Shown: positions 3,973 through 30,597, numbered from the stretch's first letter. The stretch: 32,000 nt of DNA from Candidatus Saccharimonadota bacterium (GCA_002952755.1 CP025011.1:570001-602000); one strand, 5' to 3'. Program-made: numbers and translations. Notes: generated by a model not told the origin, from the sequence alone.

Positions 3973-4084
3973 ACAGATGAAAGATGTCGAAATGCAAACG
4001 CTTTTCTTATCTGTAACGATGTCGTAACTGTTTCCCATAAAACAACACGCCGCTCCACTGGGATGCTTGTACAATGAGACAAGT

Positions 4085-4903
4085 ATGAGAGATCAGTTAT
4101 TAGTCAGGCTGAGAGATGCAAGCGACATTAGCATAGTAGGGGGTAAGGCCAGTGCGCTCGGCACGATGCTGCGTACGGGCTTTCGAGTCCCGGATGGTTT
4201 TGTGTTGCCTGCGAAAGCTTTCAATAAAATGACTCCCCAACTCGAAAACGTATTGATGCATTCTTTTGATGAGCTGGATGCACGTTTCGTAGCCGTTCGC
4301 TCAAGCGCTATCAACGAAGATGGCATAGATGCGGCATGGGCAGGGCAGTTAGACACTTTTCTTAATTGCATCCGGAATGAATTAGTGCAAAAAGTGAAGA
4401 GTTGCTGGAAGTCCGTTAATACTGAACGTGCTCAGTCTTATGCCTTGCAAAAAGGAATCAAAAGTTCGCGAATTGCGGTAATAGTGCAGGAGATGATCGA
4501 TAGTGATATCAGTGGGGTGGCCTTCTCGGCACACCCTGTCTCTGGAAATGAAGCGCTTGTTGTGATAGAAGCAGGGCTTGGCTTAGGAGAAGCTGTGGTT
4601 TCTGGCGAAATCACCCCCGACACCTATATCGTCAATAAGGAAGACGGACAATTAGCCGAAAAACATGTCGCCATGCAAAAGAGGATGCGCATAAAGAGTG
4701 AGGCTGGAGAGAATATTTGGGAGGACGTTGGCGATAAGGGTAGCGCACAAAAATTGTCAGCGGAACAGATTGATGACGTGTATAAGCTGACGGTAAAACT
4801 TGAGAAATTCTTCGCGTACCCTGTAGATGTTGAATGGGCAATTAAAGGCAACACCCTCTATGTTTTGCAGTGCCGTCCAATAACTACCCTACTGCACCCA
4901 TGA
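4085..4903 (+). CDS. PEP/pyruvate-binding (PPDK_N, ATP-grasp) domain protein; nucleotide-binding subunit of a split dikinase-type enzyme
   Basis: GGKASALGTMLRTGFRVPDGFVL, VAVRSSAINEDG, GVAFSAHPVSG and the C-terminal YVLQCRPIT are the hallmark blocks of the PEP synthase / PPDK N-terminal domain. Start taken at ATG 4085; the track TTG at 4067 is an alternative. Confidence 0.8.
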   Translation: MRDQLLVRLRDASDISIVGGKASALGTMLRTGFRVPDGFVLPAKAFNKMTPQLENVLMHSFDELDARFVAVRSSAINEDGIDAAWAGQLDTFLNCIRNELVQKVKSCWKSVNTERAQSYALQKGIKSSRIAVIVQEMIDSDISGVAFSAHPVSGNEALVVIEAGLGLGEAVVSGEITPDTYIVNKEDGQLAEKHVAMQKRMRIKSEAGENIWEDVGDKGSAQKLSAEQIDDVYKLTVKLEKFFAYPVDVEWAIKGNTLYVLQCRPITTLLHP

Positions 4904-4934: not shown

Positions 4935-6032
4935 ATGGCCGACGATAAGCTCGCAGAATTACTAAAAACGCAGAAATCCCTGACCGAATGGCTGGAAGAT
5001 ATTAAACATTCCGACGCCACGCTTATTCGAAAAGAAGATAACGATAAACGTGAGCGCTTAAAAGTGTTGCATGAAGTCATAGGCCTTCCTTTTGACAAGC
5101 CCACTCAATTTGAAGCGACTGAACTAAGCGAAGACAACCAGAAGTTTATGGCCTTCCTTAAAGAGCGGGGAGCTGAGTTGTGCGCATTAAGGCTAATGCC
5201 TAAGAAGGAGGGGCTACCGAAACTTCGCATGCGCGGGAAGACAACAACAGACGCGTATGCATGGTTTAAGGAGCAAAAGATTGACCCAGCTGACTACCGG
5301 GCAGATTTTATCCCTCACGCACCGGACTCATTATGGGCAACTATATTTATAGTCAACCAACATGGTATCCAGGGTGAAATTATTGACGGTGGGCATCACC
5401 AGCTTACTCAGGGTTTTCATGACGCCGCAGCGCCAAGCGTATTTAGATATGATTTTAAGGCCTGGTCTATTACTCCGCATAACGACAGGGCACTTGAACA
5501 CCTGAAAAAGATTTCTAAGTTTATATATGTGCCCGATCGTTCCCGGCAAAACAAACTGAGCGAGATGCTTCATGCAACTTTTGAGCATGACTACCTGGCT
5601 GGCTACTTTGAAACGACAGAATCTTCCCTGGGTACCTGGTACATAGACTATAGCCAATATCTTGGCGATATATATAAAGATGTTACCTTGAGGACAGAAT
5701 CGCCAAAAAGCGACGGCATAGTTACCGGGCAAACAGGTAGCTCGGGCAAGGCACGAGGTGAGGTATGTATCGTTGATCCGGATAACCTAGACATAGATTT
5801 TCCAGAGAATGGAGTGCTCGTTTGTGCAGTAACCACTCCTGACTATGTTCCGCTGATGCAAAAAGCGAGCGCCATTGTCACAGACCAAGGTGGTATACTT
5901 TCGCACGCTGCCATCGTCGCCCGTGAATTACATAAGCCATGTATTGTCGGAACGGGTGATGCTACCACGAAACTTAAGGATGGCGACTTAGTGTCTGTTG
6001 ATGCGGATGTCGGCGTAGTAGTTGAGGGTTGA
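4935..6032 (+). CDS. PEP-utilising-enzyme mobile (swivel phosphohistidine) domain protein with about 260-aa uncharacterised N-terminal domain
   Basis: Strong SD (GAAGGAGGTG) upstream of the ATG. The C-terminus has GKARGEVCIV...LVCAVTTPDYVPLMQKASAIVTDQGGILSHAAIVARELHKPCIVG with the catalytic-His motif (SHAAIVARE). The protein ends right after the swivel domain, with no PEP-binding TIM barrel. Confidence 0.8.
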   Translation: MADDKLAELLKTQKSLTEWLEDIKHSDATLIRKEDNDKRERLKVLHEVIGLPFDKPTQFEATELSEDNQKFMAFLKERGAELCALRLMPKKEGLPKLRMRGKTTTDAYAWFKEQKIDPADYRADFIPHAPDSLWATIFIVNQHGIQGEIIDGGHHQLTQGFHDAAAPSVFRYDFKAWSITPHNDRALEHLKKISKFIYVPDRSRQNKLSEMLHATFEHDYLAGYFETTESSLGTWYIDYSQYLGDIYKDVTLRTESPKSDGIVTGQTGSSGKARGEVCIVDPDNLDIDFPENGVLVCAVTTPDYVPLMQKASAIVTDQGGILSHAAIVARELHKPCIVGTGDATTKLKDGDLVSVDADVGVVVEG

Positions 6033-7727: not shown

Positions 7728-8228
7728 TCAAGTGGTATATGTTGCTTTGATTCGCGCCTCATTTTCAGCAAGAGTGTTAAGTCCTACGCTAGCTCGTCGT
7801 TCATCGACATGTTTCGGGTCTTCAATTGGGAACGGCTCCCAGCCGTCGCCAACATTACGAAACTGCGTGCCATATACTTGTGGTTTATTTTCCATGGTGA
7901 GCAGACGATCTTCCAAAAAGGCAATATTAGCTGGCCGTACATCATGAGGCGTTTGCTTCATTAGCTCCAGGCACCGTTTCATAAAGTCTGCCTCGGCGTA
8001 TGCGTGTTGTATGAGGAGCCAGGCTGCTTGCGAAGCTTCCGCTCCAACTTTCGAAATTGTAGGCCATCCTATCTCGGCAATAATTTCTTTAAGTCGAGCT
8101 GTGTTACGAGCGTCGATAGAATTATCCCACTCGTCCATGTTGGCCTGTGCCTTCATGCGCATATCTTGATCGGCTTGTGACATTTTGTGCAATTCGCGTG
8201 CTATTGGGCTTAATGGTTCATCTCCCAT
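7728..8228 (-). CDS. Conserved hypothetical protein (DUF6624-like; AAWLLIQHA motif)
   Basis: 166 aa. The pattern RLKEII..GWPT.S.VG..AS.AAWLLIQHA...FLEDRLL...KPQVYGTQF is recalled from a family of unknown function. Confidence 0.4.
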   Translation of the reverse strand: MGDEPLSPIARELHKMSQADQDMRMKAQANMDEWDNSIDARNTARLKEIIAEIGWPTISKVGAEASQAAWLLIQHAYAEADFMKRCLELMKQTPHDVRPANIAFLEDRLLTMENKPQVYGTQFRNVGDGWEPFPIEDPKHVDERRASVGLNTLAENEARIKATYTT

Positions 8229-9450: not shown

Positions 9451-10785
9451 TTAGAGTTGTTTGCTTACTTCCGCCGGCCACTCCCGTCGAATAAACGGCT
9501 TGCCCTCAACCTCTTTGGCGAGCTTTTGTATGAGCGCTTCTAATTCTGCGAAACCCCCATCAATTTCTTTTTGCCCGATTGCTATCTTATGCGGCACGAG
9601 GTCTTGGTGGGCGGATTTGAGTTTGGCGCTCAAACTCACACTGCGGTCATCTAACTCTATTCTAAGTGGCAGGTTGGCATATTTTTTGGCTAACTCTAGA
9701 CTAGCATCAACAAATGCTGCGCCAACAGGCAACAGTCGAACTTGCACCGGCTGCAACCAAAGCGGCAGGCCTTTTTCTTCAAAGTCATTGAATAGCAGGT
9801 ATAGATACCGCTCAATACCGCCCGGAATAGCTGAGTGAATGATGACTGGGTGCTTTTTGCTGCCATCCTTGTCTACGTAATGGATATTCAAGCGCGGTGC
9901 GTTGCCAATGTCTACCTGGATGCAACCGATCTCTCGTTCCTGACCCAGCTTATCAATAATCTTGTAATCGACATTTACGACCCAATAGCGGTCAACGCCA
10001 TCTTTCAGGATATTTACAAGCACGTCAGCGCCAAGCTGCCCGGGGATTTGCTCGATATGGCTTAAATACTCTTGCCATAGCTTTTCAGAAGGCACTTCGA
10101 TGACGACTTGGTACTCCCGCTCAGCGTCTTTAGCTGCGCTAACAATCTTCTCCTGCATTTTAGGGAACCACGCAAAGGCTTCGGCTGCGTCCTTAAAGTA
10201 GGGATGAATATCTGGCATGAAGAACCGGCGTTGCCTGAGAAGCAACATCATTTCGCCGCTCTGTTCGTGGCGGTAGCAATCAGATATTGAGAAATGAGCG
10301 AATGGTAGTTGCTTGTAGCTGAGCGGCGCTTTGGCTGCCAGATTGAACTGCGGATAGCTGGCATCATAGCTCATGACTACATCGTTGTCGCCAGACTTGA
10401 ATTGATATAGCCTATCGCCAAACAATGAGGCATATGCCCCAACGACAGGGTGATTTAGATTAAACATGTTTGCCCCATTCACTTCATACACTGGCATACC
10501 GAGCTCATATACGAGCTGGCGGGCATAGTCTTGTACTAACCGGCGCATGAGGTTGGCTTTGTAGTCGTACTGCACATGGCCAATGTCGGCGTTTTGCTCC
10601 CAGCGGAAACCGAGTTTGTTGGCATACTGCAAATAGACTGGTTTGTCGTTGGAGTGTTCAACCAGCACTTCATGTAGCGCCTCACGCCGAATAAACCGGG
10701 CAAATTCGGGATTGATGTCAGGCTGCTTGAGGTAGTCGTTGATCTCGACTACTTGCTTATCTTGTTTTAATACAAAGTATTTCAT
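9451..10785 (-). CDS. thrS: Threonyl-tRNA synthetase, catalytic core plus anticodon-binding domain only (no TGS or editing domains)
   Basis: Class II motif 2 region: SDCYRHEQSGEMMLLLRQRRFFMPDIHPYF. Motif 3 region: VIIHSAIPGGIERYLYLLF. Then LPLWLQPVQVRLLPVG opens the anticodon-binding domain. The Cys/His/His positions that bind zinc in E. coli ThrRS appear conserved. Total length is 444 aa. Confidence 0.8.
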   Translation of the reverse strand: MKYFVLKQDKQVVEINDYLKQPDINPEFARFIRREALHEVLVEHSNDKPVYLQYANKLGFRWEQNADIGHVQYDYKANLMRRLVQDYARQLVYELGMPVYEVNGANMFNLNHPVVGAYASLFGDRLYQFKSGDNDVVMSYDASYPQFNLAAKAPLSYKQLPFAHFSISDCYRHEQSGEMMLLLRQRRFFMPDIHPYFKDAAEAFAWFPKMQEKIVSAAKDAEREYQVVIEVPSEKLWQEYLSHIEQIPGQLGADVLVNILKDGVDRYWVVNVDYKIIDKLGQEREIGCIQVDIGNAPRLNIHYVDKDGSKKHPVIIHSAIPGGIERYLYLLFNDFEEKGLPLWLQPVQVRLLPVGAAFVDASLELAKKYANLPLRIELDDRSVSLSAKLKSAHQDLVPHKIAIGQKEIDGGFAELEALIQKLAKEVEGKPFIRREWPAEVSKQL

Positions 10786-17396: not shown

Positions 17397-18657
17397 TGTC
17401 AAGCTCCGGTTTTTCCGGACACCTTGTCTCTTTCCAGCGGAGCCGGGATGAGACTGGCAGCGTAAGCTGCCGGGCTCATCTTGAGAGCTAGGTGGATACG
17501 GTTGTGGTTGTAGTAATGTACCGTCAGGGCAATGGCTTCGTAAAGCTGGCCTAGGTCTTGGTACTGCGCTAGCTTGCACAGCTCGGGCTTGAAACTGCCA
17601 AAGAATCTCTCCATGAAGCCATTCTGCCACGGACTGGCTCGTTTGCTGCAACTGAGGGTAATCTCGAATTGGTCGCAGACCAATTGGTGCTTGTAGCTCA
17701 GGTATTCACTGCCTTGGTCACTGTGGAGAATGGTTGGAGCGGGATACTTGGCCAGTGCATCTTTTAGGGCAGCGAGCTAACGCTCGCTGCTGTGCCTGAG
17801 TCCTAACTTCCAGCCAACCACTTGCCTGGTCTTGAGGTCAAGCACGACCGCCAGGTAGTGCCAGCTCCGCTGGAACCACAAGTAGGTGAAGTCTTGTACC
17901 CAGCCTCCGGAGTCCGACATGGCAGCGTAGCTCATGCCATCTTGCGGTCTGCTTTCGTTGCGGTAGTGGGCGAAACGCTTGGGCACATTGGGTGCAGCCA
18001 GTATCTCGGCTGGTGCCGAGATACTGTAGCGTTTCTTCTTGGTTGGGCGGGCAATGGTGACGTTTGCAAGTGTCCGGATACGCCTTGCTTTGTGCTGACT
18101 CCAACCGAGGTGCAAGCTGAGCCGTCGGACACCGTACAGCGGATGCTGTACATGCGCTTCGCGCAGTGTGGCCACTGCTTGTTTGTCCCGCTCACGGAGT
18201 GTGAGCGGCTGCGCGTAGTAGCTACTACGCGCAATGCCAAGCTTGGCCACGAAATGTTTGTGCCATCCTGGGTTGACCTCTTCCAGGATGGCTAGTCTTT
18301 TGAGCGGTGCATTTCGGCCGTTGCTCGTCCGAGCAGCTTGTACAGCTGCTCGTTTTCTTTGCGAAGCTTGTTGAGCTCGAGCACAAGGTTGCGGTTGCCG
18401 TCGACGACGTTCTTCCGCAGCCAACGGTAGATGCTCTTGCTGCTGACGTTGTAGGTGGCACTCGCGTCAGTGACGCTCATGCCACCATCTCGGATCTTAG
18501 CCAAAATGGTTGTTTTGACCTACTGGTCGGTTGGTTTGCCTGTGGGCATACAGAAAAAGCTCCTTTCACTAGCAGCGCTGACGCGCTGCTAGTTTTATGT
18601 TACCAAATGAGTCAATTCCGGAAGAGACTACGTGTCTAGTTTAATGGGAGCCTGACA
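17397..18657 (-). mobile_element. IS3-family insertion sequence (1,261 bp), decayed
   Basis: Imperfect terminal IRs start with TGTCA and match at 27 of 38 hand-aligned positions. OrfA (HTH/leucine zipper) and orfB (rve DDE core) are in the -1 frame relationship, with a TCAAAAG slippery-like site near 18292. Visibly more GC-rich than its surroundings. Confidence 0.85.
17399..18549 (-). pseudogene. IS3 transposase orfAB, disrupted by two in-frame TAG codons
   Basis: OrfA reads MPTGKPTDQ*VKTTILAKIRDGGMSVTDA (TAG at 18520..18522). OrfB reads ...GLRHSSER*LAALKDALAKYPAPTILHSDQGSEY (TAG at 17777..17779) within the DDE domain. Confidence 0.8.
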
Positions 18658-19175: not shown

Positions 19176-20117
19176 TCAGGCTTTCTTAGTGAGCGTTTTA
19201 TAGGTTAAACGTTTCCCGTTAAAGTTCGCAAACCACTCCTCAAACCGTTCGCCGTCGTTCATCTCTCGCGTGTTCCAACGGTAGCTATACTCGTCGCAGT
19301 ATTTCTGTAAGTGCTTTGGGCTGACATGGTGGTAAATACCGTTAATGCCACGCTTGAGATGTGACCAAAACGATTCTGCTGTATTGGTGCTAGCCATGCC
19401 ATTTACAAACTCTTTAACGCCATGATTGACGCTTTCGTGTTTGTAGCCGATCTTAGGCAAAGTACGGTAAGGCATGTGCTCGTCAGTGTACACTGTAGCG
19501 TCAATATCAATGTGCTTGCGAACTAGGCCCATGAGAGTTGCGCTGCCGGTATCGCTTGTTACTACGGCATGGAGGCTACCGCCACGTTCTACCATACCGA
19601 CGACTGGAGTTTTACTATTCTTGCTGCCAAAGCCTTGAGCGCCTTTACCAGTGAGGTACTTGGTGCGCTTCGTGGCGTGTTTATTATTATCCTTGCCACC
19701 GATGTAGGCTTCGTCCATTTCTACAGCGTCTTTGAGTTTTTCAAAGGTGCCGCTCTCGAAGACGTAGCGAATGCGTTGGAGCATGAACCAACTTGTCTTT
19801 TGGGTGACGTTTAAGTATCTGGCAAGTTGGATTGATGAGATTCCTTTTTTTAGGCTTGTGCAAAGGTAGATAGCAAGGAGCCATTTCTGTAGCGGAATCA
19901 TACTGTCTTCAAAGATGGTGCCCATGCGGACAGTAAAGGGCTTGCGGCATTCCGCACATTTGAGGCGGCCACTGGCAAGTTTGTAAGCTTTGATGCCAAC
20001 AACGCCACACTTCGGGCAGATAATCTCATTGCCCCAACGCTGCTGTGCTATAAACTCTGCACACTTTGCTTCTGAGGCAAATTGATTGAAGAAGTCGATG
20101 AGATTACCCGCATTCAT
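19176..20117 (-). CDS. IS1595-family transposase (N-terminal zinc ribbon plus ISXO2-like DDE domain)
   Basis: CPKCG...KCAECRKPFTVRMGTIFEDSMIPLQKWLLAIYL, then VEMDEAYIGG, VYTDEHMPY, VNH and NTAESFWSHLKR. This is the characteristic IS1595 domain order. Confidence 0.9.
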   Translation of the reverse strand: MNAGNLIDFFNQFASEAKCAEFIAQQRWGNEIICPKCGVVGIKAYKLASGRLKCAECRKPFTVRMGTIFEDSMIPLQKWLLAIYLCTSLKKGISSIQLARYLNVTQKTSWFMLQRIRYVFESGTFEKLKDAVEMDEAYIGGKDNNKHATKRTKYLTGKGAQGFGSKNSKTPVVGMVERGGSLHAVVTSDTGSATLMGLVRKHIDIDATVYTDEHMPYRTLPKIGYKHESVNHGVKEFVNGMASTNTAESFWSHLKRGINGIYHHVSPKHLQKYCDEYSYRWNTREMNDGERFEEWFANFNGKRLTYKTLTKKA

Positions 20118-21787: not shown

Positions 21788-21928
21788 AACCTTATATTAT
21801 TGCACGGTGCACCAAACGTAAAGTTTATGATTTTCATGATAGCAGTAAGCTACTAGAACTTTCAATATTTATTGAGAGATGTATAATTGTCTCTATACGA
21901 AAGCACAACCGTAATCAAGGGGCGAGAT

Positions 21929-22822
21929 ATGAACATGGCAATACGAATAAACAATCTAACGAAGCGATATGGTAGCTTCACGGCGCTAGACAATCTAAAT
22001 CTTGAGGTAAAAAAGGGAGAGATCTTTGGTTTTCTAGGGCCAAATGGCGCAGGTAAAACGACAACGATTCGTTTGCTGCTTGGCCTGATTCGGCCTACAG
22101 CCGGACTGGCGGCCATATTCGACCTGGATACTCAAAAGCAAAAAGAGGCAGCACACAAACTGGTTGCGTATGTACCCGGCGAAGCTAATCTATGGCCATT
22201 TCTGACTGGCGCTGAAACGCTGCATTTACTGGAAAAGGTGCATGGTAAAGTTGACGAAAAATACCGTGACGAATTAATAAAACGCTTTGCGCTTGACCCG
22301 AATAAAAAGGTGCGTGCTTACTCAAAAGGCAACAAGCAGAAAGTGAGCTTGATTGCCGCCCTTGCCTCACGGGCAGAACTACTCATACTTGACGAGCCGA
22401 CTTCGGGATTAGACCCGCTCATGGAACAGGCATTCCGGGACAGCATCAAAGAAGCGCAAAGTAACGGTCAAACCGTCTTCCTGTCATCGCATATATTAGG
22501 CGAAGTTGAGGTTTTATGTGATCGGGTTGCGGTGCTTAAATCTGGTAAATTGGTTGAATTAGGTACGCTTGCTGAAATGCGGCATCTGTCAGCGGTCACG
22601 ATTGAGGCGACATTTGCCGGAAAGCCGCCAACGGTTGATCACCTTGCGGGTGTCGGCAATGTCAAAGTACATAATCATCATCTGAGCTGCCAGGTAAACG
22701 GTCCGATTGATGAACTTTTGCGCGTTATTACTCCCGCCCGGCCTATAACTTTATTGAGTCGTGAGCCGTCATTAGAAGAGCTATTCTTGTCGCTGTACGG
22801 CGATGGTGGGGGCAGGAAGTAA
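21929..22822 (+). CDS. ABC transporter ATP-binding protein (ABC-2 / DrrA-like exporter type)
   Basis: Walker A (GPNGAGKTT), Q-loop, signature (YSKGNKQKVSL), Walker B (LLILDEPTSGLD) and H-loop (SSHIL). ATG at 21929 with AAGGGG as SD. Confidence 0.9.
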   Translation: MNMAIRINNLTKRYGSFTALDNLNLEVKKGEIFGFLGPNGAGKTTTIRLLLGLIRPTAGLAAIFDLDTQKQKEAAHKLVAYVPGEANLWPFLTGAETLHLLEKVHGKVDEKYRDELIKRFALDPNKKVRAYSKGNKQKVSLIAALASRAELLILDEPTSGLDPLMEQAFRDSIKEAQSNGQTVFLSSHILGEVEVLCDRVAVLKSGKLVELGTLAEMRHLSAVTIEATFAGKPPTVDHLAGVGNVKVHNHHLSCQVNGPIDELLRVITPARPITLLSREPSLEELFLSLYGDGGGRK

Positions 22823-24477
22823 TGGCTGCTACCACTTTGGTTATTGATAGTAAACTCGCTAGGGGTACGAAAAGTGTTATCCGCCGCTTTACGTTCAGGA
22901 GGGTACTACTAAGTGCCAGTCTCTTTGGCTTATTTACCGCTATAGAGAGCGTGGCGCAGAGTGCTGGCATCATTGCAGCCTATCCAGATGTAGCCCCACG
23001 GGCTAGGTTTATACATGGCTTAGCGAGTAATGGTGCTTTGGGGCTATTCTATGGCGATAGCCATGTCGACATCATCAGCGCAGGAGGCTACATGGACTAT
23101 CGCATTTTGCCCATACTCTCTTTGGTACTGGCAATTTGGAGCCTGATGTTCATTACTAAAATGCTACGAGGCCAAGAAGAGAACGGCCGCTGGGAACTGT
23201 TACTTACTGGCGATACGTCCGCAACCAGCGCCACTCGTGATACTGTTGTTGGCGCTGGAGGTGGGGTACTGTTCATTTTTTTGGTGGTGGCCACCGTACT
23301 CGGGTTGTCTAGCAAAAGTCCTAAGCTCTCATTTTCATTCAGCAGTTGCTTGCTGTATAGCTTGACAATAGTAGGGGGCGCGGCAATTAGTATCGGGATT
23401 GGCACTATAGCCAGCCAGTTGGCAGCAACCAGGCGACGCGCAAATTTGTATGGAATTGGGATATTACTGCTGTTTTTTATCCTACGAGGCATCGGCAACA
23501 CCATAGAAAGTCTTGCCTGGGTCAAAAACTTAACTCCGTTTGGCTGGATTGATAAGTTACACCCTTTCGTAGGTGCCTCACCCGTCTGGCTATTTCCAAC
23601 CGCACTGCTTACCTTAATTACCTGTAGCCTAGGAATCTGGCTGGCGGGTAAGCGAGATATAGGTGAAAGCTTTATCGCCGATTCAGATAGTGCGAAGCCG
23701 AATCTTAGACTGCTTCATTCGCAGCTCGGTTTTGGGGTACGCCAGACTCGTTCAGTACTAGGCGGCTGGCTGTTCACTAGTGTTGCACTATCGGCTTTAA
23801 TTGCCAGTATCGATAAGACGGTTGCTAAATCAATGAGTAGTACAAACGGTGTTACGAAAACCCTGAGCAATCTAACGGGTAACTCGGCCGCTCATATCCA
23901 GATAGCTTACCTTAGTGCGGCCAGCTACATCACCTTGATCATCCTCATGATGGTAGCCGCTACAGGCCTCGGCGCGGTACGGGAAGAAGAAGCTAGCAGC
24001 CGACTAGACAACTTTGTCAGCGGTACTATCAGCCGAAGCAGCTGGTTGAGCAAGCGTCTTTTACTGCTCGAGGGTAGCGTGCTGGCGATAACCTTGCTTT
24101 CTGGTCTAGCGGTCTGGCTACTGGCGGCGGGGCAGGGTATTCATACTAGCTTTGCGGCCGTAGTTTTAGGTGGCCTGAATATACTTGGGCCGATTGCATT
24201 TCTACTTGGCCTCGGTACTTTATTGTATGGCACTATGCCACGTTTGGCAGTTATTGCTATGTATGTTGTAGCGGCTTGGTCATTTACGATTGATCTCATT
24301 GCCTCGGCCGGTACTATTAATAAATACCTTGCAGATACCTCGCTGTTGCACCATGTCGCTCTTGTACCTGCCGCCGCTCCACACTGGGAGTCGTTTATCC
24401 TCTTAACGCTCACGGGGCTGGCCTTTACGGCTTTGGGTGTGCTAGGCTTTCAGCGGCGGGATCTAGAGGCGGAGTAA
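22822..24477 (+). CDS. ABC-2-type exporter permease (large, about 12 TM)
   Basis: The start overlaps the ATPase stop (TAATG). 551 aa with many TM helices in two halves, resembling the large fused permeases of drug or polyketide exporter systems. Confidence 0.65.
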   Translation: MAATTLVIDSKLARGTKSVIRRFTFRRVLLSASLFGLFTAIESVAQSAGIIAAYPDVAPRARFIHGLASNGALGLFYGDSHVDIISAGGYMDYRILPILSLVLAIWSLMFITKMLRGQEENGRWELLLTGDTSATSATRDTVVGAGGGVLFIFLVVATVLGLSSKSPKLSFSFSSCLLYSLTIVGGAAISIGIGTIASQLAATRRRANLYGIGILLLFFILRGIGNTIESLAWVKNLTPFGWIDKLHPFVGASPVWLFPTALLTLITCSLGIWLAGKRDIGESFIADSDSAKPNLRLLHSQLGFGVRQTRSVLGGWLFTSVALSALIASIDKTVAKSMSSTNGVTKTLSNLTGNSAAHIQIAYLSAASYITLIILMMVAATGLGAVREEEASSRLDNFVSGTISRSSWLSKRLLLLEGSVLAITLLSGLAVWLLAAGQGIHTSFAAVVLGGLNILGPIAFLLGLGTLLYGTMPRLAVIAMYVVAAWSFTIDLIASAGTINKYLADTSLLHHVALVPAAAPHWESFILLTLTGLAFTALGVLGFQRRDLEAE

Positions 24478-24479
24478 TT

Positions 24480-24935
24480 ATGGCCCCAGCGAATCACAAA
24501 TCAGATTTAGAAGTATACGTAGAAAAGATGAGCGTTTTTTTTGGTATGGAGACTCGCATGCCCCATAGTATTGCCCGCGTTCTCAGCCATTTGCTAGTGA
24601 GTGAGCCGCCCTATCAGTCAACCAATCAAATTGCGGCTAGCCTCCAGTTATCTGCCGGTTCAGTTAATAATGCCGTAAACATGCTCTTGCAAGCCGGCCT
24701 CGTGAAACGTGTAACGCTAACCGGCGACCGGCATTACTATTACGAGTCCAATCCCGCAGGTTGGAAGCAAGTCATGCTACTGCGTTTGCAGTCGATACAC
24801 CATGGCGTTGCGCTCGCTGAGGAAGGCATGAAGCTGTCTAAAGATTCTGCGCGGCTCAAGGCTATGTACGATACCTATACCATATTTGAATCAGAAGCTG
24901 AAAAACTTATTGAACGCCTTAACGCTATAGGATAA
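24480..24935 (+). CDS. GbsR/MarR-like winged-helix regulator
   Basis: The ATG is 2 nt after the permease stop. MPHSIARVLSHLLVSEPPYQSTNQIAASLQLSAGSVNNAVNMLLQAGLVKRV matches the GbsR-type pattern. Confidence 0.65.
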   Translation: MAPANHKSDLEVYVEKMSVFFGMETRMPHSIARVLSHLLVSEPPYQSTNQIAASLQLSAGSVNNAVNMLLQAGLVKRVTLTGDRHYYYESNPAGWKQVMLLRLQSIHHGVALAEEGMKLSKDSARLKAMYDTYTIFESEAEKLIERLNAIG

Positions 24936-27049: not shown

Positions 27050-27370
27050 AGTCAAAATGTAGCAGAATGACAGCGTACTGTCAAATATACTGAACATTAC
27101 ATAGACGAATAACGATAGGCACAACCAGATTGATGTGGGCGACTATGATGAAAAAAATCATACCCCCCGTATGCCAACTAAGTTGCAAGTGGAGGATGCA
27201 TCTTATATTCCTTTTTGGCATAAGCCGGTGCGATATGGTTTTAGATGTTACAGGCAACCAAGTTGAAGTTATTGATAGGCGAAATATAAGCCGGCTTTAC
27301 CGACTTGACACAAATTCCAAGAAAAATTATTCTAATAAAGATATATCTTTATTATTACGGAGATCTTTAC

Positions 27371-27826
27371 ATGCCAACCAAGCGTTTGCCCCTTAATCAA
27401 GCACGGCGCGGAGACATCCGCATTATATTATTAGCCGTTTTAGCCAAGCAGCCCCGCCACGGCTACGGCATCATTCGTCATCTCGAACAGAAAAGTAAGG
27501 GTGCCTGGCGACCTAGCCCTGGTGCTATTTACCCTATGCTTCAGCAACTCGAAGAGGAGGAGCTGGTGATAGGCAAAAGGATAGACAGCAAAATCATCTA
27601 TCGCCTAACAGATAAAGGACAAAAGGAGGTTGAAGCGAGCTCGGTTGAAGGACCGTGGGAGTCAGATGAAGAGATGTTTCGGCATGTAGCCTGGATTAAG
27701 GAAATAACCGCACAGTTAACGCAGAGCTATTTACGATTGATCCAAGTTGCCGATACTGAAACGGTCGAAGCTCTTCGTACACATACAGAAGAGCTATTAG
27801 AACTAATACAAAAGGAGATAAAATAA
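27371..27826 (+). CDS. PadR family transcriptional regulator
   Basis: ATG at 27371 with ACGGAG upstream. IRIILLAVLAKQPRHGYGIIRHLEQKSKGAWRPSPGAIYPMLQQLEEEELV. Confidence 0.85.
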   Translation: MPTKRLPLNQARRGDIRIILLAVLAKQPRHGYGIIRHLEQKSKGAWRPSPGAIYPMLQQLEEEELVIGKRIDSKIIYRLTDKGQKEVEASSVEGPWESDEEMFRHVAWIKEITAQLTQSYLRLIQVADTETVEALRTHTEELLELIQKEIK

Positions 27827-28716
27827 TGACTGCTAAGAAAACTGTTTTAGTTGGTGGCGCTACTGGTCGCCAGGGTGGGGCTGTAGTGAATAGATTACTG
27901 GGCAATGGTCACTCGGTTATCGCTTATGTGCAGAACGCCCAAGCGCCTGCAGCACAGGATCTGCAAAAAAGGGGAGTAACCCTTGCTGTTGGCGATCTTA
28001 ATGATCCCGTAGCACTGAGGGAAGCTGCTGAGCCTGCCGATGCTATTTTCAGCATTACCATACCGTTTGGCCCCCAGGGGCAGGCTGGCGAGATAGATCA
28101 AGGTAAGAATCTGGCCAATGTGGCTGACGAGCTACAGAAACATTTAATCTATTCCTCGATTGCGGGCGCAAAGCCCACGGCAGATTTAAAGGTGGAACAT
28201 GCTAGCAGTAAGCAACAAATTGAGGCCTACCTGGCCACAAAAGAAGGTTTGCGAAGCACGATCATTGCACCGGTCTACCTTATGGAGAATCTGCTCAACT
28301 TTAAATTTAATGGGCTTGAGCGTGGTATATATGCGCAACCGCTATCATCTCACGCAAAGATTAACCAAGTAACGGTTCTGGATATCGCCAGCCTGGCCGT
28401 TTGGGCGATTGAACATCCAGCTACGATGGTAGGTAAACGTATCGAGGTAGCTTCCGATGACATTTCTGGGGAAGAAATCGTACAAATACTAAGTGAAGTA
28501 ATGGGACGTCCAATTAAATATTACCAAACGCCGTTGGAACAAGTGCGCCAAACCGCAGGCAATGAAATCGCTACAATGTACGAGAAGTTTGAAGCGACCC
28601 CATACAAGGTAGATATTGCGGCACTACGCGCAGCATTTCCTCAGATTGATTGGCACACCTTTAAAGAGTGGGCCGAGACGCTTGATTGGAAGAGATTGCT
28701 GCCAGTTCATGGTTGA
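27826..28716 (+). CDS. NmrA-family NAD(P)-binding protein
   Basis: Start overlaps the padR stop (TAATG). KTVLVGGATGRQGGAVVNRLLGNGHSVIAYV Rossmann motif, with length and order typical of NmrA-like proteins. Confidence 0.8.
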   Translation: MTAKKTVLVGGATGRQGGAVVNRLLGNGHSVIAYVQNAQAPAAQDLQKRGVTLAVGDLNDPVALREAAEPADAIFSITIPFGPQGQAGEIDQGKNLANVADELQKHLIYSSIAGAKPTADLKVEHASSKQQIEAYLATKEGLRSTIIAPVYLMENLLNFKFNGLERGIYAQPLSSHAKINQVTVLDIASLAVWAIEHPATMVGKRIEVASDDISGEEIVQILSEVMGRPIKYYQTPLEQVRQTAGNEIATMYEKFEATPYKVDIAALRAAFPQIDWHTFKEWAETLDWKRLLPVHG

Positions 28717-28834
28717 GTGTGAATCCGACGAAGGGAACAACCTGTTGACTGGCTTTATATATACAATCACTCGTGGTTTGTCTTAAAGAGCGGTTTAGAC
28801 CATGGTATACTTAAGCGTAATTAAAGGGCATTTT

Positions 28835-29086
28835 ATGGCCAAAACACCAGCCTCCATCATAGAATTGCCGTCCGCTTCCAACACTGTTTTTGGAGAGCTG
28901 ACACAGAGGGACACAGATACTACCCTCGGAGAGGGTGCGGTCGCAGGCTATTGGGCCACTCGGGTACCTACTGTCTTTGAAAAAGTCGATGGTGTCCTTG
29001 ATGAAAGTAATGACACAAAAATGACTTTTCCTACTGGTGATCCGGGAGACCCCCTTCCAATCCCCCGACCCCGACCCGGACCCTAA
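28835..29086 (+). CDS. Putative graspetide precursor peptide (83 aa)
   Basis: ATG at 28835 with AAGGG as SD, 56 nt upstream of an MdnC/MvdD-type ATP-grasp gene. The C-terminal region DESNDTKMTFPTGDPGDP is rich in Thr/Ser, Asp/Glu and one Lys. The tail is PLPIPRPRPGP. An internal repeat reads TVFGEL / TVFEKV. Confidence 0.55.
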   Translation: MAKTPASIIELPSASNTVFGELTQRDTDTTLGEGAVAGYWATRVPTVFEKVDGVLDESNDTKMTFPTGDPGDPLPIPRPRPGP

Positions 29087-29142
29087 GCCAAGGCCGCCAG
29101 GGCCACGCCCCGACGAGGTTTTTCTGTCCTAGGCTTGTTTTA

Positions 29143-30138
29143 ATGTCAAAGCAGATTTTTGTTTTTTCCGCAGCCCTAGACAAGCCGACCACCGCGCCTG
29201 TTATTGCCCTATTACTGCAGCGAGGCTACGAAGTTTTAGATTACGAAGCCGATAAGGTCGCAAACGGCGAGGCAGGTCTCTCGATTACTATTGGCAATGG
29301 TATCGATGCGCAGATTATCTACAAAGAGAAGTCGGTCTATCCGAGGAGGGTGGCCGCGGCATGGTGCCGTCGGCCAAACCTTTTTGGCCCTATCGCTACA
29401 GGTACTGACCGCGCCACCCGTGGTAGTCTAGATTTAGAGCGTCGTGCATCCCAGCAATTTATTGAGGATAGTATTCCGATTGGCCGTTGGCTCAATAGTC
29501 CGGATGTCCTAAGGCACCAAGAGGCGGATCATAAATTAGGCCAACTCCTCCTTGCTCAAAAGGTTGGCTTTCGGACACCGTTGACTATCGTAGGCAATGA
29601 GTGGAGACCTATTGCCTCTACCCTAGGGCCGGATATAATTTATAAATCATTTTGGGGGCAGCGTATGGGGGCCGACAAGCGACTTATGCTCTTTACGACG
29701 CCACTTAAGAATATGGGGCCCTATTCCCCTCCTATGAGGGGTCTGCCGTATCCAGGAATATGGCAAGATCAGTTACCGAAGCGACGCGAATGGCGTATTA
29801 CTGTCATTGGCGATCAAATATTCGAGGCAGTCATCTATCACAATAAGAGCCACACAAAGGACGACTGGCGACGGCATACCCTAGATGCTGGTATGCACTG
29901 GGAGCGAGGTAGCTTTCCGGCCGAAGAAAAAAAGAAATGTCTTAAATACTGCGAACAGGCACATTTGCGTATGGGGATGTTCGATTTTATTGAGGATTCT
30001 GGAGAAGAGCTGACTTTCCTTGAATGCAATCCGAACGGTCAGTACATGTGGCTTGAAGATGAACTGCACTTACCGTTATCCGAAGCTGTTGCAGATGAGT
30101 TGATACGGATTGCCGAGGGCGGGGCTCACCTTCTCTGA
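29143..30138 (+). CDS. ATP-grasp ribosomal-peptide maturase (MdnC/MvdD microviridin-ligase family)
   Basis: Blocks recalled from microviridin ligases: IFVFSAALDKPTTAPVIALL, VAAAWCRR, HKLGQLLLAQKVGFRTPLTIVGN, LMLFTTPL, EWRITVIGDQIFEAVIY, DWRR, MGMFDFIE...TFLECNPNGQYMWLE and PLSEAVADELI. Confidence 0.8.
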   Translation: MSKQIFVFSAALDKPTTAPVIALLLQRGYEVLDYEADKVANGEAGLSITIGNGIDAQIIYKEKSVYPRRVAAAWCRRPNLFGPIATGTDRATRGSLDLERRASQQFIEDSIPIGRWLNSPDVLRHQEADHKLGQLLLAQKVGFRTPLTIVGNEWRPIASTLGPDIIYKSFWGQRMGADKRLMLFTTPLKNMGPYSPPMRGLPYPGIWQDQLPKRREWRITVIGDQIFEAVIYHNKSHTKDDWRRHTLDAGMHWERGSFPAEEKKKCLKYCEQAHLRMGMFDFIEDSGEELTFLECNPNGQYMWLEDELHLPLSEAVADELIRIAEGGAHLL

Positions 30139-30249
30139 TGTGGCAGGGTGTGGGTCCGTCAACTGGCTCTCCTTGGTCGCAACTCTTATCCTTCTCGCAA
30201 GAAAAAATAGAACAACTTAGCTTTATTTATAATCAAGGAGGGATAATTA

Positions 30250-30597
30250 TTAGTGGTCCGGATGAGATTTGAAGTATGCTTTTAATTTTTCAATGTAAGA
30301 ATTTTTTAAGCGATCCTCTGTAAATGCTTGTTGGTCATGGTTGTAATAAAGCTTGTCGTCTTCATATCGCGGGAAGACATGAACATGAAAACGCCAGACG
30401 TCTTGATCTCCCGCTGGCTCATTATGCTGTCGTTTATTGCCAGAAACCGCACAGCGTAGCTAAATGCCAATAGCTTCGTCAAAATAGAGTAAAGACCGAC
30501 CTTATATTTACAACAGAGATCTAGAGTTAGCAAGGGAGATTGTAGATAAAGGTTGGGTAGGCCCAGGTAATCCTCAGACAACTATTGTTGCAAAGCG
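30250..30597 (-). pseudogene. HIT-family (histidine triad) pseudogene
   Basis: The C-terminal 69 codons are intact and contain NEPAGDQDVWRFHVHVFPRYEDD (HxHxHxx). Upstream in the same frame there are four stops: TAG 30460..30462, TAA 30502..30504, TAA 30508..30510 and TGA 30574..30576. Confidence 0.55.

Follow-up and report, generated by a model that had tools for sequence, protein, structure and literature searches.

Graspetides are a fast-growing class of RiPPs with protease-inhibitor and other activities. The microviridins (group 1; MdnA, MdnB/MdnC, and the acetyltransferase MdnD) employ two ligases and a GNAT, with the leader motif PFFARFL and the core TxKYPSD(W)E(E/D). Plesiocin, with its ligase PsnB (group 2), and other single-ligase graspetides pair one ligase with one precursor and place the hydroxyl residues N-terminal to the carboxylates; the plesiocin core is a repeated TTxxxxEE module. 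Two-gene graspetide clusters are already known in groups 27, 28, and 35 (PMC13097080). For the candidate-phyla (episymbiotic) bacteria, whose graspetides have been flagged as unexplored, Makarova et al. 2022 described two CPR branches (1 and 2) of graspetide ATP-grasps, the leader signature Phhx(1,2)h, and 'cluster 23', an uncharacterised neighbour found in abundance (PMC8939145). Carter et al. 2026 distinguished 43 graspetide groups, of which group 42 comprises 22 BGCs from candidate phyla and has DUF6624 in 82% of them; these authors suggested that this recurrent graspetide-associated unknown may be a new biosynthetic enzyme (PMC13097080).

The present study concerns a 32,000-nt stretch of a Candidatus Saccharimonadota genome (the window), in which an ORF for an 83-aa peptide (MAKTPASIIELPSASNTVFGELTQRDTDTTLGEGAVAGYWATRVPTVFEKVDGVLDESNDTKMTFPTGDPGDPLPIPRPRPGP in translation) is followed, after a gap of 56 nt (29087..29142), by an ORF for a 331-aa ATP-grasp protein (Table 1). 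An earlier note on this DNA had proposed a minimal two-gene graspetide unit that is not a microviridin. HMM matches, the fold, and the neighbourhoods of homologues uphold this central reading, and translation returned both ORFs exactly at the coordinates and with the sequences claimed. We give a probability of about 80% to the reading that the locus is a minimal graspetide (omega-ester-containing RiPP) cassette, whose enzyme would act on the peptide encoded upstream. The locus is a previously uncatalogued graspetide, ordinary in kind. Its leader motif is duplicated, its core (TG.P.DP) is distinct, its proline-rich follower is truncated, and its chemistry is what we infer. Hereafter, the near clade means the window together with the loci L087, L084, and L085.

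Table 1. Predicted features of the two-gene locus, in window coordinates
Feature	Position	Strand	Basis
Precursor peptide gene	28835..29086	+	83 aa; ATG 28835, TAA 29084-86; homologous ORFs precede the nearest ligase homologues
First TVF motif, N16-TVFGEL22	28880..28900	+	T17, V18, F19 invariant in 4 near-clade precursors
Leader spacer, L31-G32 ... G38-Y39	28925..28951	+	L31, G32, A35, G38, Y39 invariant in near clade
Second motif, P45-TVFEKV51, predicted ligase-recognition element	28967..28987	+	T46, E49 invariant; aligned with clade motif
Predicted core D56-P73 (DESNDTKMTFPTGDPGDP)	29000..29053	+	T67, G68, D72, P73 invariant and D[EG] at 56-57 conserved in near clade
Short proline-rich tail in frame 0 (LPIPRPRPGP)	29054..29083	+	Translation
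Frameshift site CCAATCCCCC, 10 nt without counterpart in L087	29057..29066	+	DNA alignment A5
+1-frame remnant of ancestral acidic proline-rich tail, DPDPDPKPRPPGPRPDEVFLS*	29067..29132	+	Ends 10 nt before ligase ATG
Graspetide-type ATP-grasp macrocyclase gene (predicted)	29143..30138	+	331 aa; HMM, PDB sequence, fold model, homologues
D281 ... E294-x-N296, predicted Mg2+/ATP-binding triad	29983..30030	+	Invariant in alignments A1 (37 sequences) and A4

With the microviridins, the window locus shares the enzyme fold and the catalytic blocks, MdnC and MdnB being the best matches of its ligase among solved structures, as well as a precursor in which a short leader motif comes ahead of a core rich in Thr/Ser and Asp/Glu. 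However, the window ligase is about 23-30% identical to the microviridin enzymes (23-24% in the fold alignment), does not reach the MvdC/MvdD equivalog scores, and is a single ligase with no GNAT nearby. Its precursor has TVFExV (TVFEKV) in place of PFFARFL, and the core TKMTFPTGDPGDP belongs to a family without a conserved Lys for a lactam. The loose echo of the microviridin TxKYPSD that had been seen in TKMTFPTGD did not survive the comparison of homologues. Neither the Lys nor the spacing is conserved, K62 being found in the window precursor only among those of the near clade, and the invariant residues are instead T67-G68 and D72-P73. The arrangement of plesiocin and other single-ligase systems, one ligase with one precursor and hydroxyl residues ahead of carboxylates, is also that of the window locus, and PsnB is a fold match to its ligase at E ~1e-17 with 18-19% identity. 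Whereas plesiocin repeats its core module, the window precursor duplicates the leader motif and not the core.

Like the CPR loci of Makarova et al. (branches 1 and 2) and of Carter et al. (group 42), the window locus combines an ATP-grasp enzyme with a small precursor in a candidate-phyla host. The relatives of the window ligase are also mostly from Ca. Saccharimonadia and usually have a DUF6624-like neighbour. In contrast to most of group 42, no DUF6624 gene adjoins the ligase in the window or its near clade. The suggestion of a possibly new graspetide group stands only in part. What the locus contributes is one more core and leader family, together with a handy test case; it changes no concept. 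Its ligase nests in a Saccharimonadia-centred clade, and CPR loci and DUF6624 neighbours have already been described (PMC8939145, PMC13097080). The published representative precursors of group 42 (one) and group 27 show no similarity in any locus compared here. Neither VLEALA nor TVFE nor 'Saccharimon' occurs as a string in the accessible portions of the supplements of either paper, and a literature search returned no paper joining graspetides with Saccharibacteria or Patescibacteria.

The ATP-grasp ligase and its relatives

The earlier note had read a microviridin-type ATP-grasp block order in the 331-aa protein. Every block that it quoted (VAAAWCRR, HKLGQLLLAQKVGF, EWRITVIGDQIF, DWRR, and TFLECNPNGQYMWLE) is present, and in the alignment these match the equivalent blocks of MdnB and MdnC. 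Among NCBIfam models, the ligase matched GRASP_SAV_5884 (TIGR04187; 4.2e-44), MvdC (3.7e-33), MvdD (4.9e-32), grasp-with-spasm (1.1e-12), and RimK (0.0056). TIGR04187, the best-scoring curated HMM, is matched at full length (residues 8-320) with 151 bits against a cut-off of 350, and the window locus lacks its partner O-methyltransferase. The corresponding values are 115 bits for MvdC (cut-off 425) and 111 bits for MvdD (cut-off 475). For rimK_fam, the score of 16 bits against 143 leaves the RimK/GshB housekeeping threshold unreached. Since every NCBIfam score lies far under its curated cut-off, the ligase falls in no curated equivalog. Pfam gave weak matches to the MvdD pre-ATP-grasp domain and nothing else.

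Structural comparisons point to the same lineage. A sequence search of the PDB with the ligase returned MdnB, MdnC, AMdnB, PruB, and CdnC (5.5e-24 to 1e-14). An AlphaFold (AF2) model built from 37 homologues has a mean pLDDT of 89.9, and in a fold search against the PDB, ranks 1-32 were all graspetide cyclases (MdnC, AMdnB, MdnB, CdnC, PruB, and PsnB; TM-scores about 0.63-0.84), with RimK structures at rank 33 or lower. Thus, by HMM and by fold, the best matches are RiPP maturases and not RimK/GshB, the outcome on which the earlier note had staked its reading. The ligase keeps all family-invariant residues, including K168, E216-W217-R218, D241-W242, D281, and E294-x-N296 (37-sequence alignment A1; A4), which we take to be ATP/Mg2+ and substrate-carboxylate positions of the ATP-grasp fold. 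The role of D281, E294, and N296 as a Mg2+/ATP-binding triad is presumed from ATP-grasp enzymes in general. Judged by sequence and model, the ligase is a predicted RiPP macrocyclase of the MdnB/MdnC-like maturase lineage, not a housekeeping ligase.

A word-indexed search with the ligase found 221 relatives. Three stand nearest, at 64%, 58%, and 56% identity, and a broad group comes next at ~45%. When HMMER was run exhaustively against 1.84 billion cluster representatives, 5947 matches were obtained at E<=1e-3 and 79 at E<=1e-30. The near clade was represented there by a single 50%-identity cluster (representative P0003, 59% identical to the window ligase). Among GTDB representative genomes, nearly every relative above ~33% identity comes from a Candidatus Saccharimonadia MAG, and an exact-peptide scan of these genomes with the window ligase detected no relative. 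In a neighbour-joining tree, drawn with no bootstrap, the window, L087, and L084/L085 nest inside a Saccharimonadia-dominated clade. The GC content of the window (48%) is inside the range of the Saccharimonadia loci. These comparisons mark the ligase as a putative rare sub-branch of a Saccharimonadia-centred clade.

The precursor, its leader, and its core

Homologous ORFs of 82-86 aa end 12-17 nt before the ligase start in all three of the nearest ligase homologues (56-64% identical), and a motif-bearing ORF occurs in most loci of the wider clade; the conserved neighbouring small ORF that the earlier note had looked to as a check is thus found. Across the near clade, the amino-acid identity of the precursor is 36-70%, with dN of 0.22-0.83 and dS > 1.7 or undefined, and dN/dS is qualitative only because dS is saturated. 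Identity kept despite saturated synonymous sites argues, in qualitative terms, for purifying selection on a translated gene. In the public annotation of the genome, the precursor starts farther upstream, at the ATG at 28802, and has 94 aa. We prefer the 83-aa start because the homologues begin at an equivalent MK.TP (MKQTP.., MKPNQ..). Pfam and NCBIfam gave no match to the precursor, and a profile search with the four near-clade precursors retrieved two database entries only. Small ORFs being rarely called, the spread of the precursor was read from the loci themselves. The ligase is accordingly accompanied by a linked small ORF with a conserved leader and a core of Thr/Ser and Asp/Glu, and on this comparative evidence the ORF is a real, conserved gene for a putative graspetide precursor.

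The four-sequence alignment of the near clade adds V47 and F48, which complete an invariant T46-V47-F48-E49, and V51 to the invariant leader residues of Table 1. T46 and E49 are invariant in 20/20 precursors of a fused alignment. In an alignment of 21 sequences, the second TVFE of the window aligns with the single leader motif T[VAL][LFVM]E.L of all other clade precursors, which in the wider clade is directly preceded by 'LG[RK]'. None of the 17 wider-clade precursors has the first TVF motif. Of the 33 clade loci, 21 contain a small ORF on the ligase strand that matches the regex T[AVLIM][FLVMI]E.[LVIM]; in 12 of these it immediately precedes the ligase, and in the other 9 it comes just before a DUF6624-like gene that intervenes. 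Set against a background of 17 matches in 227,774 residues, the motif is enriched more than 100-fold; the figure is post hoc, since the regex itself was built on these loci. In a six-frame motif scan of the window, the precursor was the sole motif-bearing small ORF.

The earlier note had pointed out two similar leader motifs and had considered two recognition/core modules. Both motifs exist (NTVFGEL at N16 and PTVFEKV at P45), and both are invariant in the four near-clade precursors. However, the TQRDTDTT stretch is not conserved, whereas LG...GY is, and only the second motif is orthologous to that of the wider clade. The first TVF motif is therefore best described as a putative near-clade-specific duplication within the leader and not as a second core.

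The C-terminal region, which had been described as rich in crosslinkable residues, is borne out as a core rich in Thr/Ser and Asp/Glu with T67 and D72 invariant. The four-sequence alignment gives T67-G68 and D72-P73, plus the tail prolines, as invariant across the near clade. Candidate ester partners would be T67/T64 for the hydroxyl and D72/D69 or D56/E57 for the carboxyl.

Most wider-clade relatives have a DUF6624-like gene of ~210 aa between or beside the precursor and the ligase, and these ligase-linked proteins match DUF6624 weakly (about 20 bits). None adjoins the ligase in the window, L084, or L085. If the DUF6624-like protein is an obligatory partner, the two-gene unit of the window might be incomplete. 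The locus also lends itself to comparison with the three-gene relatives that carry this uncharacterised protein. The three-gene unit of precursor, DUF6624-like protein, and ligase was observed in L012, L013, L014, L017, L018, L019, L091, L092, and L096 (also L008 and L015). Its precursors have the leader LG[RK]ITVLEALA, strongly conserved as LG[RK]ITVLEALAEET, and a core of the form ..(R/Q)ST(x5-6)D(F)(E/D)D, also written ..ST......DF[ED]DD. This Saccharimonadia precursor family was not found in the accessible portions of the catalogues of PMC8939145 and PMC13097080. A canonical DUF6624 ORF (Pfam 5.4e-22, 78 bits), the only DUF6624 gene in the window, is located at 7728..8228 (-), 21 kb from the ligase. 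It is unlikely to be a dispersed partner of the ligase because it is canonical, unlike the divergent ligase-linked proteins, distant, and on the other strand.

Proposed chemistry and the proline-rich tail

According to the proposed scheme, the 83-aa peptide would be made by the ribosome, and the ATP-grasp enzyme would bind its leader through T46-V-F-E49-x-V, the upstream TVF copy of the near clade possibly giving a second contact. The enzyme would then spend ATP in activating side-chain carboxylates of core Asp/Glu as acyl phosphates, and attack by Thr/Ser hydroxyls would close one or two macrolactone rings, most probably between the invariant T67 and D72; a second ring may form between T64 and D69 or through D56/E57. 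Leader removal and export would fall to enzymes encoded elsewhere. The binding mode, the ester (not amide) chemistry, and the choice of linked residues are our predictions. The locus offers a compact, easily expressed two-gene system with a defined leader motif, T-h-h-E-x-h.

The window precursor differs from its closest homologues at the C-terminus. All three near-clade homologues run on into a 20-25-residue acidic proline-rich tail (..DPFEPEPEPEPQPDPMPPHP), and the window sequence GAC CCC GAC CCG GAC aligns with the L087 coding frame GAC CCC GAT CCC GAT. The tail remnant of the window sits in a 31-codon +1 ORF (29037..29132), which overlaps the 3' end of the precursor gene and fills the 56-nt gap. 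Since the homologues encode the tail in one frame, the frameshift is derived. From these alignments, the window precursor has a derived truncation of the acidic proline-rich tail, and the 56-nt gap, rather than being intergenic in origin, is an out-of-frame remnant of that tail. Precursors of the wider clade have no proline-rich tail; the tail is therefore probably dispensable for cyclisation, and the frameshifted window allele would still be a substrate. If the tail carboxylates are ring donors, or if the tail is needed otherwise, the window allele could be impaired. The tail-less allele of the window and the tailed alleles of L084, L085, and L087 form a natural comparison.

The frameshift invites two other explanations. 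One takes the cassette as decaying or inactive, with the frameshift marking a function lost in the lineage and the ligase intact only because the event is recent. The truncation relative to 3/3 homologues would fit such a loss, as would the IS1595 and rve transposase genes near the locus and the absence of the ligase-linked DUF6624-like partner of most relatives. We nevertheless regard decay as unlikely. Both the leader and the conserved core as far as D72-P73 precede the shift and are undamaged, the ligase ORF has kept its whole length and every invariant residue, the lost tail is the part that the wider clade does without, and the frameshift-site sequence is the same in the window and in three Logan (SRA-run) assemblies. 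The other explanation is a programmed +1 frameshift at CCC-CGA (29063-68), from which two products would arise, one of 83 aa and one of 98 aa with an ancestral-type tail. A rare Arg codon after CCC-C makes a slippery context, and the +1 frame, which has no stop until 10 nt short of the ligase start, specifies DPDPDPKPRPPGPRP, a homologue of the relatives' tails. However, an open +1 frame of 21 codons is expected by chance at p ~0.36 by our own estimate, and the single-frame tail of the homologues makes the shift a derived state, so that programmed frameshifting seems extremely unlikely.

Whether the small ORF encodes the substrate at all is a separate matter. The ligase could act on another peptide, a protein, or a small molecule, the small ORF being a co-transcribed accessory or regulatory peptide; the link between enzyme and peptide is indirect, and in many relatives the DUF6624-like protein stands between the small ORF and the ligase. 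This appears very unlikely to us, given that the small ORF with T-h-h-E-x-h travels with the ligase in 21 of the 33 clade loci despite extreme variation in its C-terminal part. A constant motif next to a hypervariable C-terminal part is what a RiPP leader and its core look like, and the six-frame scan offered no other motif-bearing small ORF in the window. The graspetide cassette thus remains our preferred reading. As a tentative and rather doubtful extension of it, the window, L087, and L084/L085 may constitute a distinct, very rare graspetide group of four lineages nested among Saccharimonadia systems. Its bipartite leader with the duplicated TVF would perhaps contact both protomers of a dimeric ligase, the carboxylates of its acidic polyproline follower might serve crosslinking or targeting, and the window allele would be a natural truncation or a +1 frameshifting version of that follower.

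Genomic neighbourhood

On the 5' side, the locus is preceded by a PadR gene (27305..27826) and an NmrA-like gene (27826..28716). On the 3' side, ~510 nt separate the ligase from the gene of a giant secreted PA14/RHS protein. As the earlier note had remarked, no second ligase, acetyltransferase, methyltransferase, protease, or exporter adjoins the two genes; the neighbourhood contains no other adjoining tailoring enzyme either. Precursor and ligase are the sole unit common to the window and L084/L085. Scans for sigma-70 promoters and terminators around the locus gave nothing above shuffled sequence, no Rfam family was matched anywhere in the window, and the window contains no tRNA. A run of an ABC transporter ATPase, a 551-aa ORF without a Pfam match, and a MarR regulator (21887..24935, +), operon-like in its arrangement, was considered as an exporter of the cassette. 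It was rejected because it lies 4 kb off with unrelated genes on both strands between and is not conserved beside the homologues.

Several further observations concern the surrounding DNA. One public assembly annotates a 44-aa ORF (30138..30272, +), whose ATG overlaps the ligase stop (cTGATGt); this ORF has no conserved counterpart beside the homologues. The PA14 protein gene runs from ~30651 to the end of the window and onward in L001 from 7509; its 2486-aa product, which is secreted, has PA14 domains, faint RHS/YD-repeat matches, and a signal-peptide-like N-terminus. In L084 (2681..3676) and L085 (2671..3660), the gene upstream of the precursor encodes a ~330-aa protein that has no Pfam match and carries a GYSFG motif, possibly an alpha/beta-hydrolase nucleophile elbow. 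The two copies share 77% identity, and the window has none. Mobile elements occur ~9-11 kb from the locus, namely an rve integrase fragment (17777..18424, -) and an intact IS1595-family transposase (19176..20117, -). A PPDK_N domain (4067..4903) and a PEP-utilising mobile domain (4935..6032), both on the + strand, fall on two consecutive ORFs. The PEP-synthase/phosphotransferase-like enzyme that they represent is either split or frameshifted. Finally, a 443-aa ThrRS-like class II aaRS paralog (9451..10785, -) consists of the core and the anticodon-binding domain only. Its relatives, 70-90% identical, are found on many metagenome contigs, with conflicting MAG labels (Chromulinivoraceae, Verrucomicrobiae, and Saccharimonadia-type).
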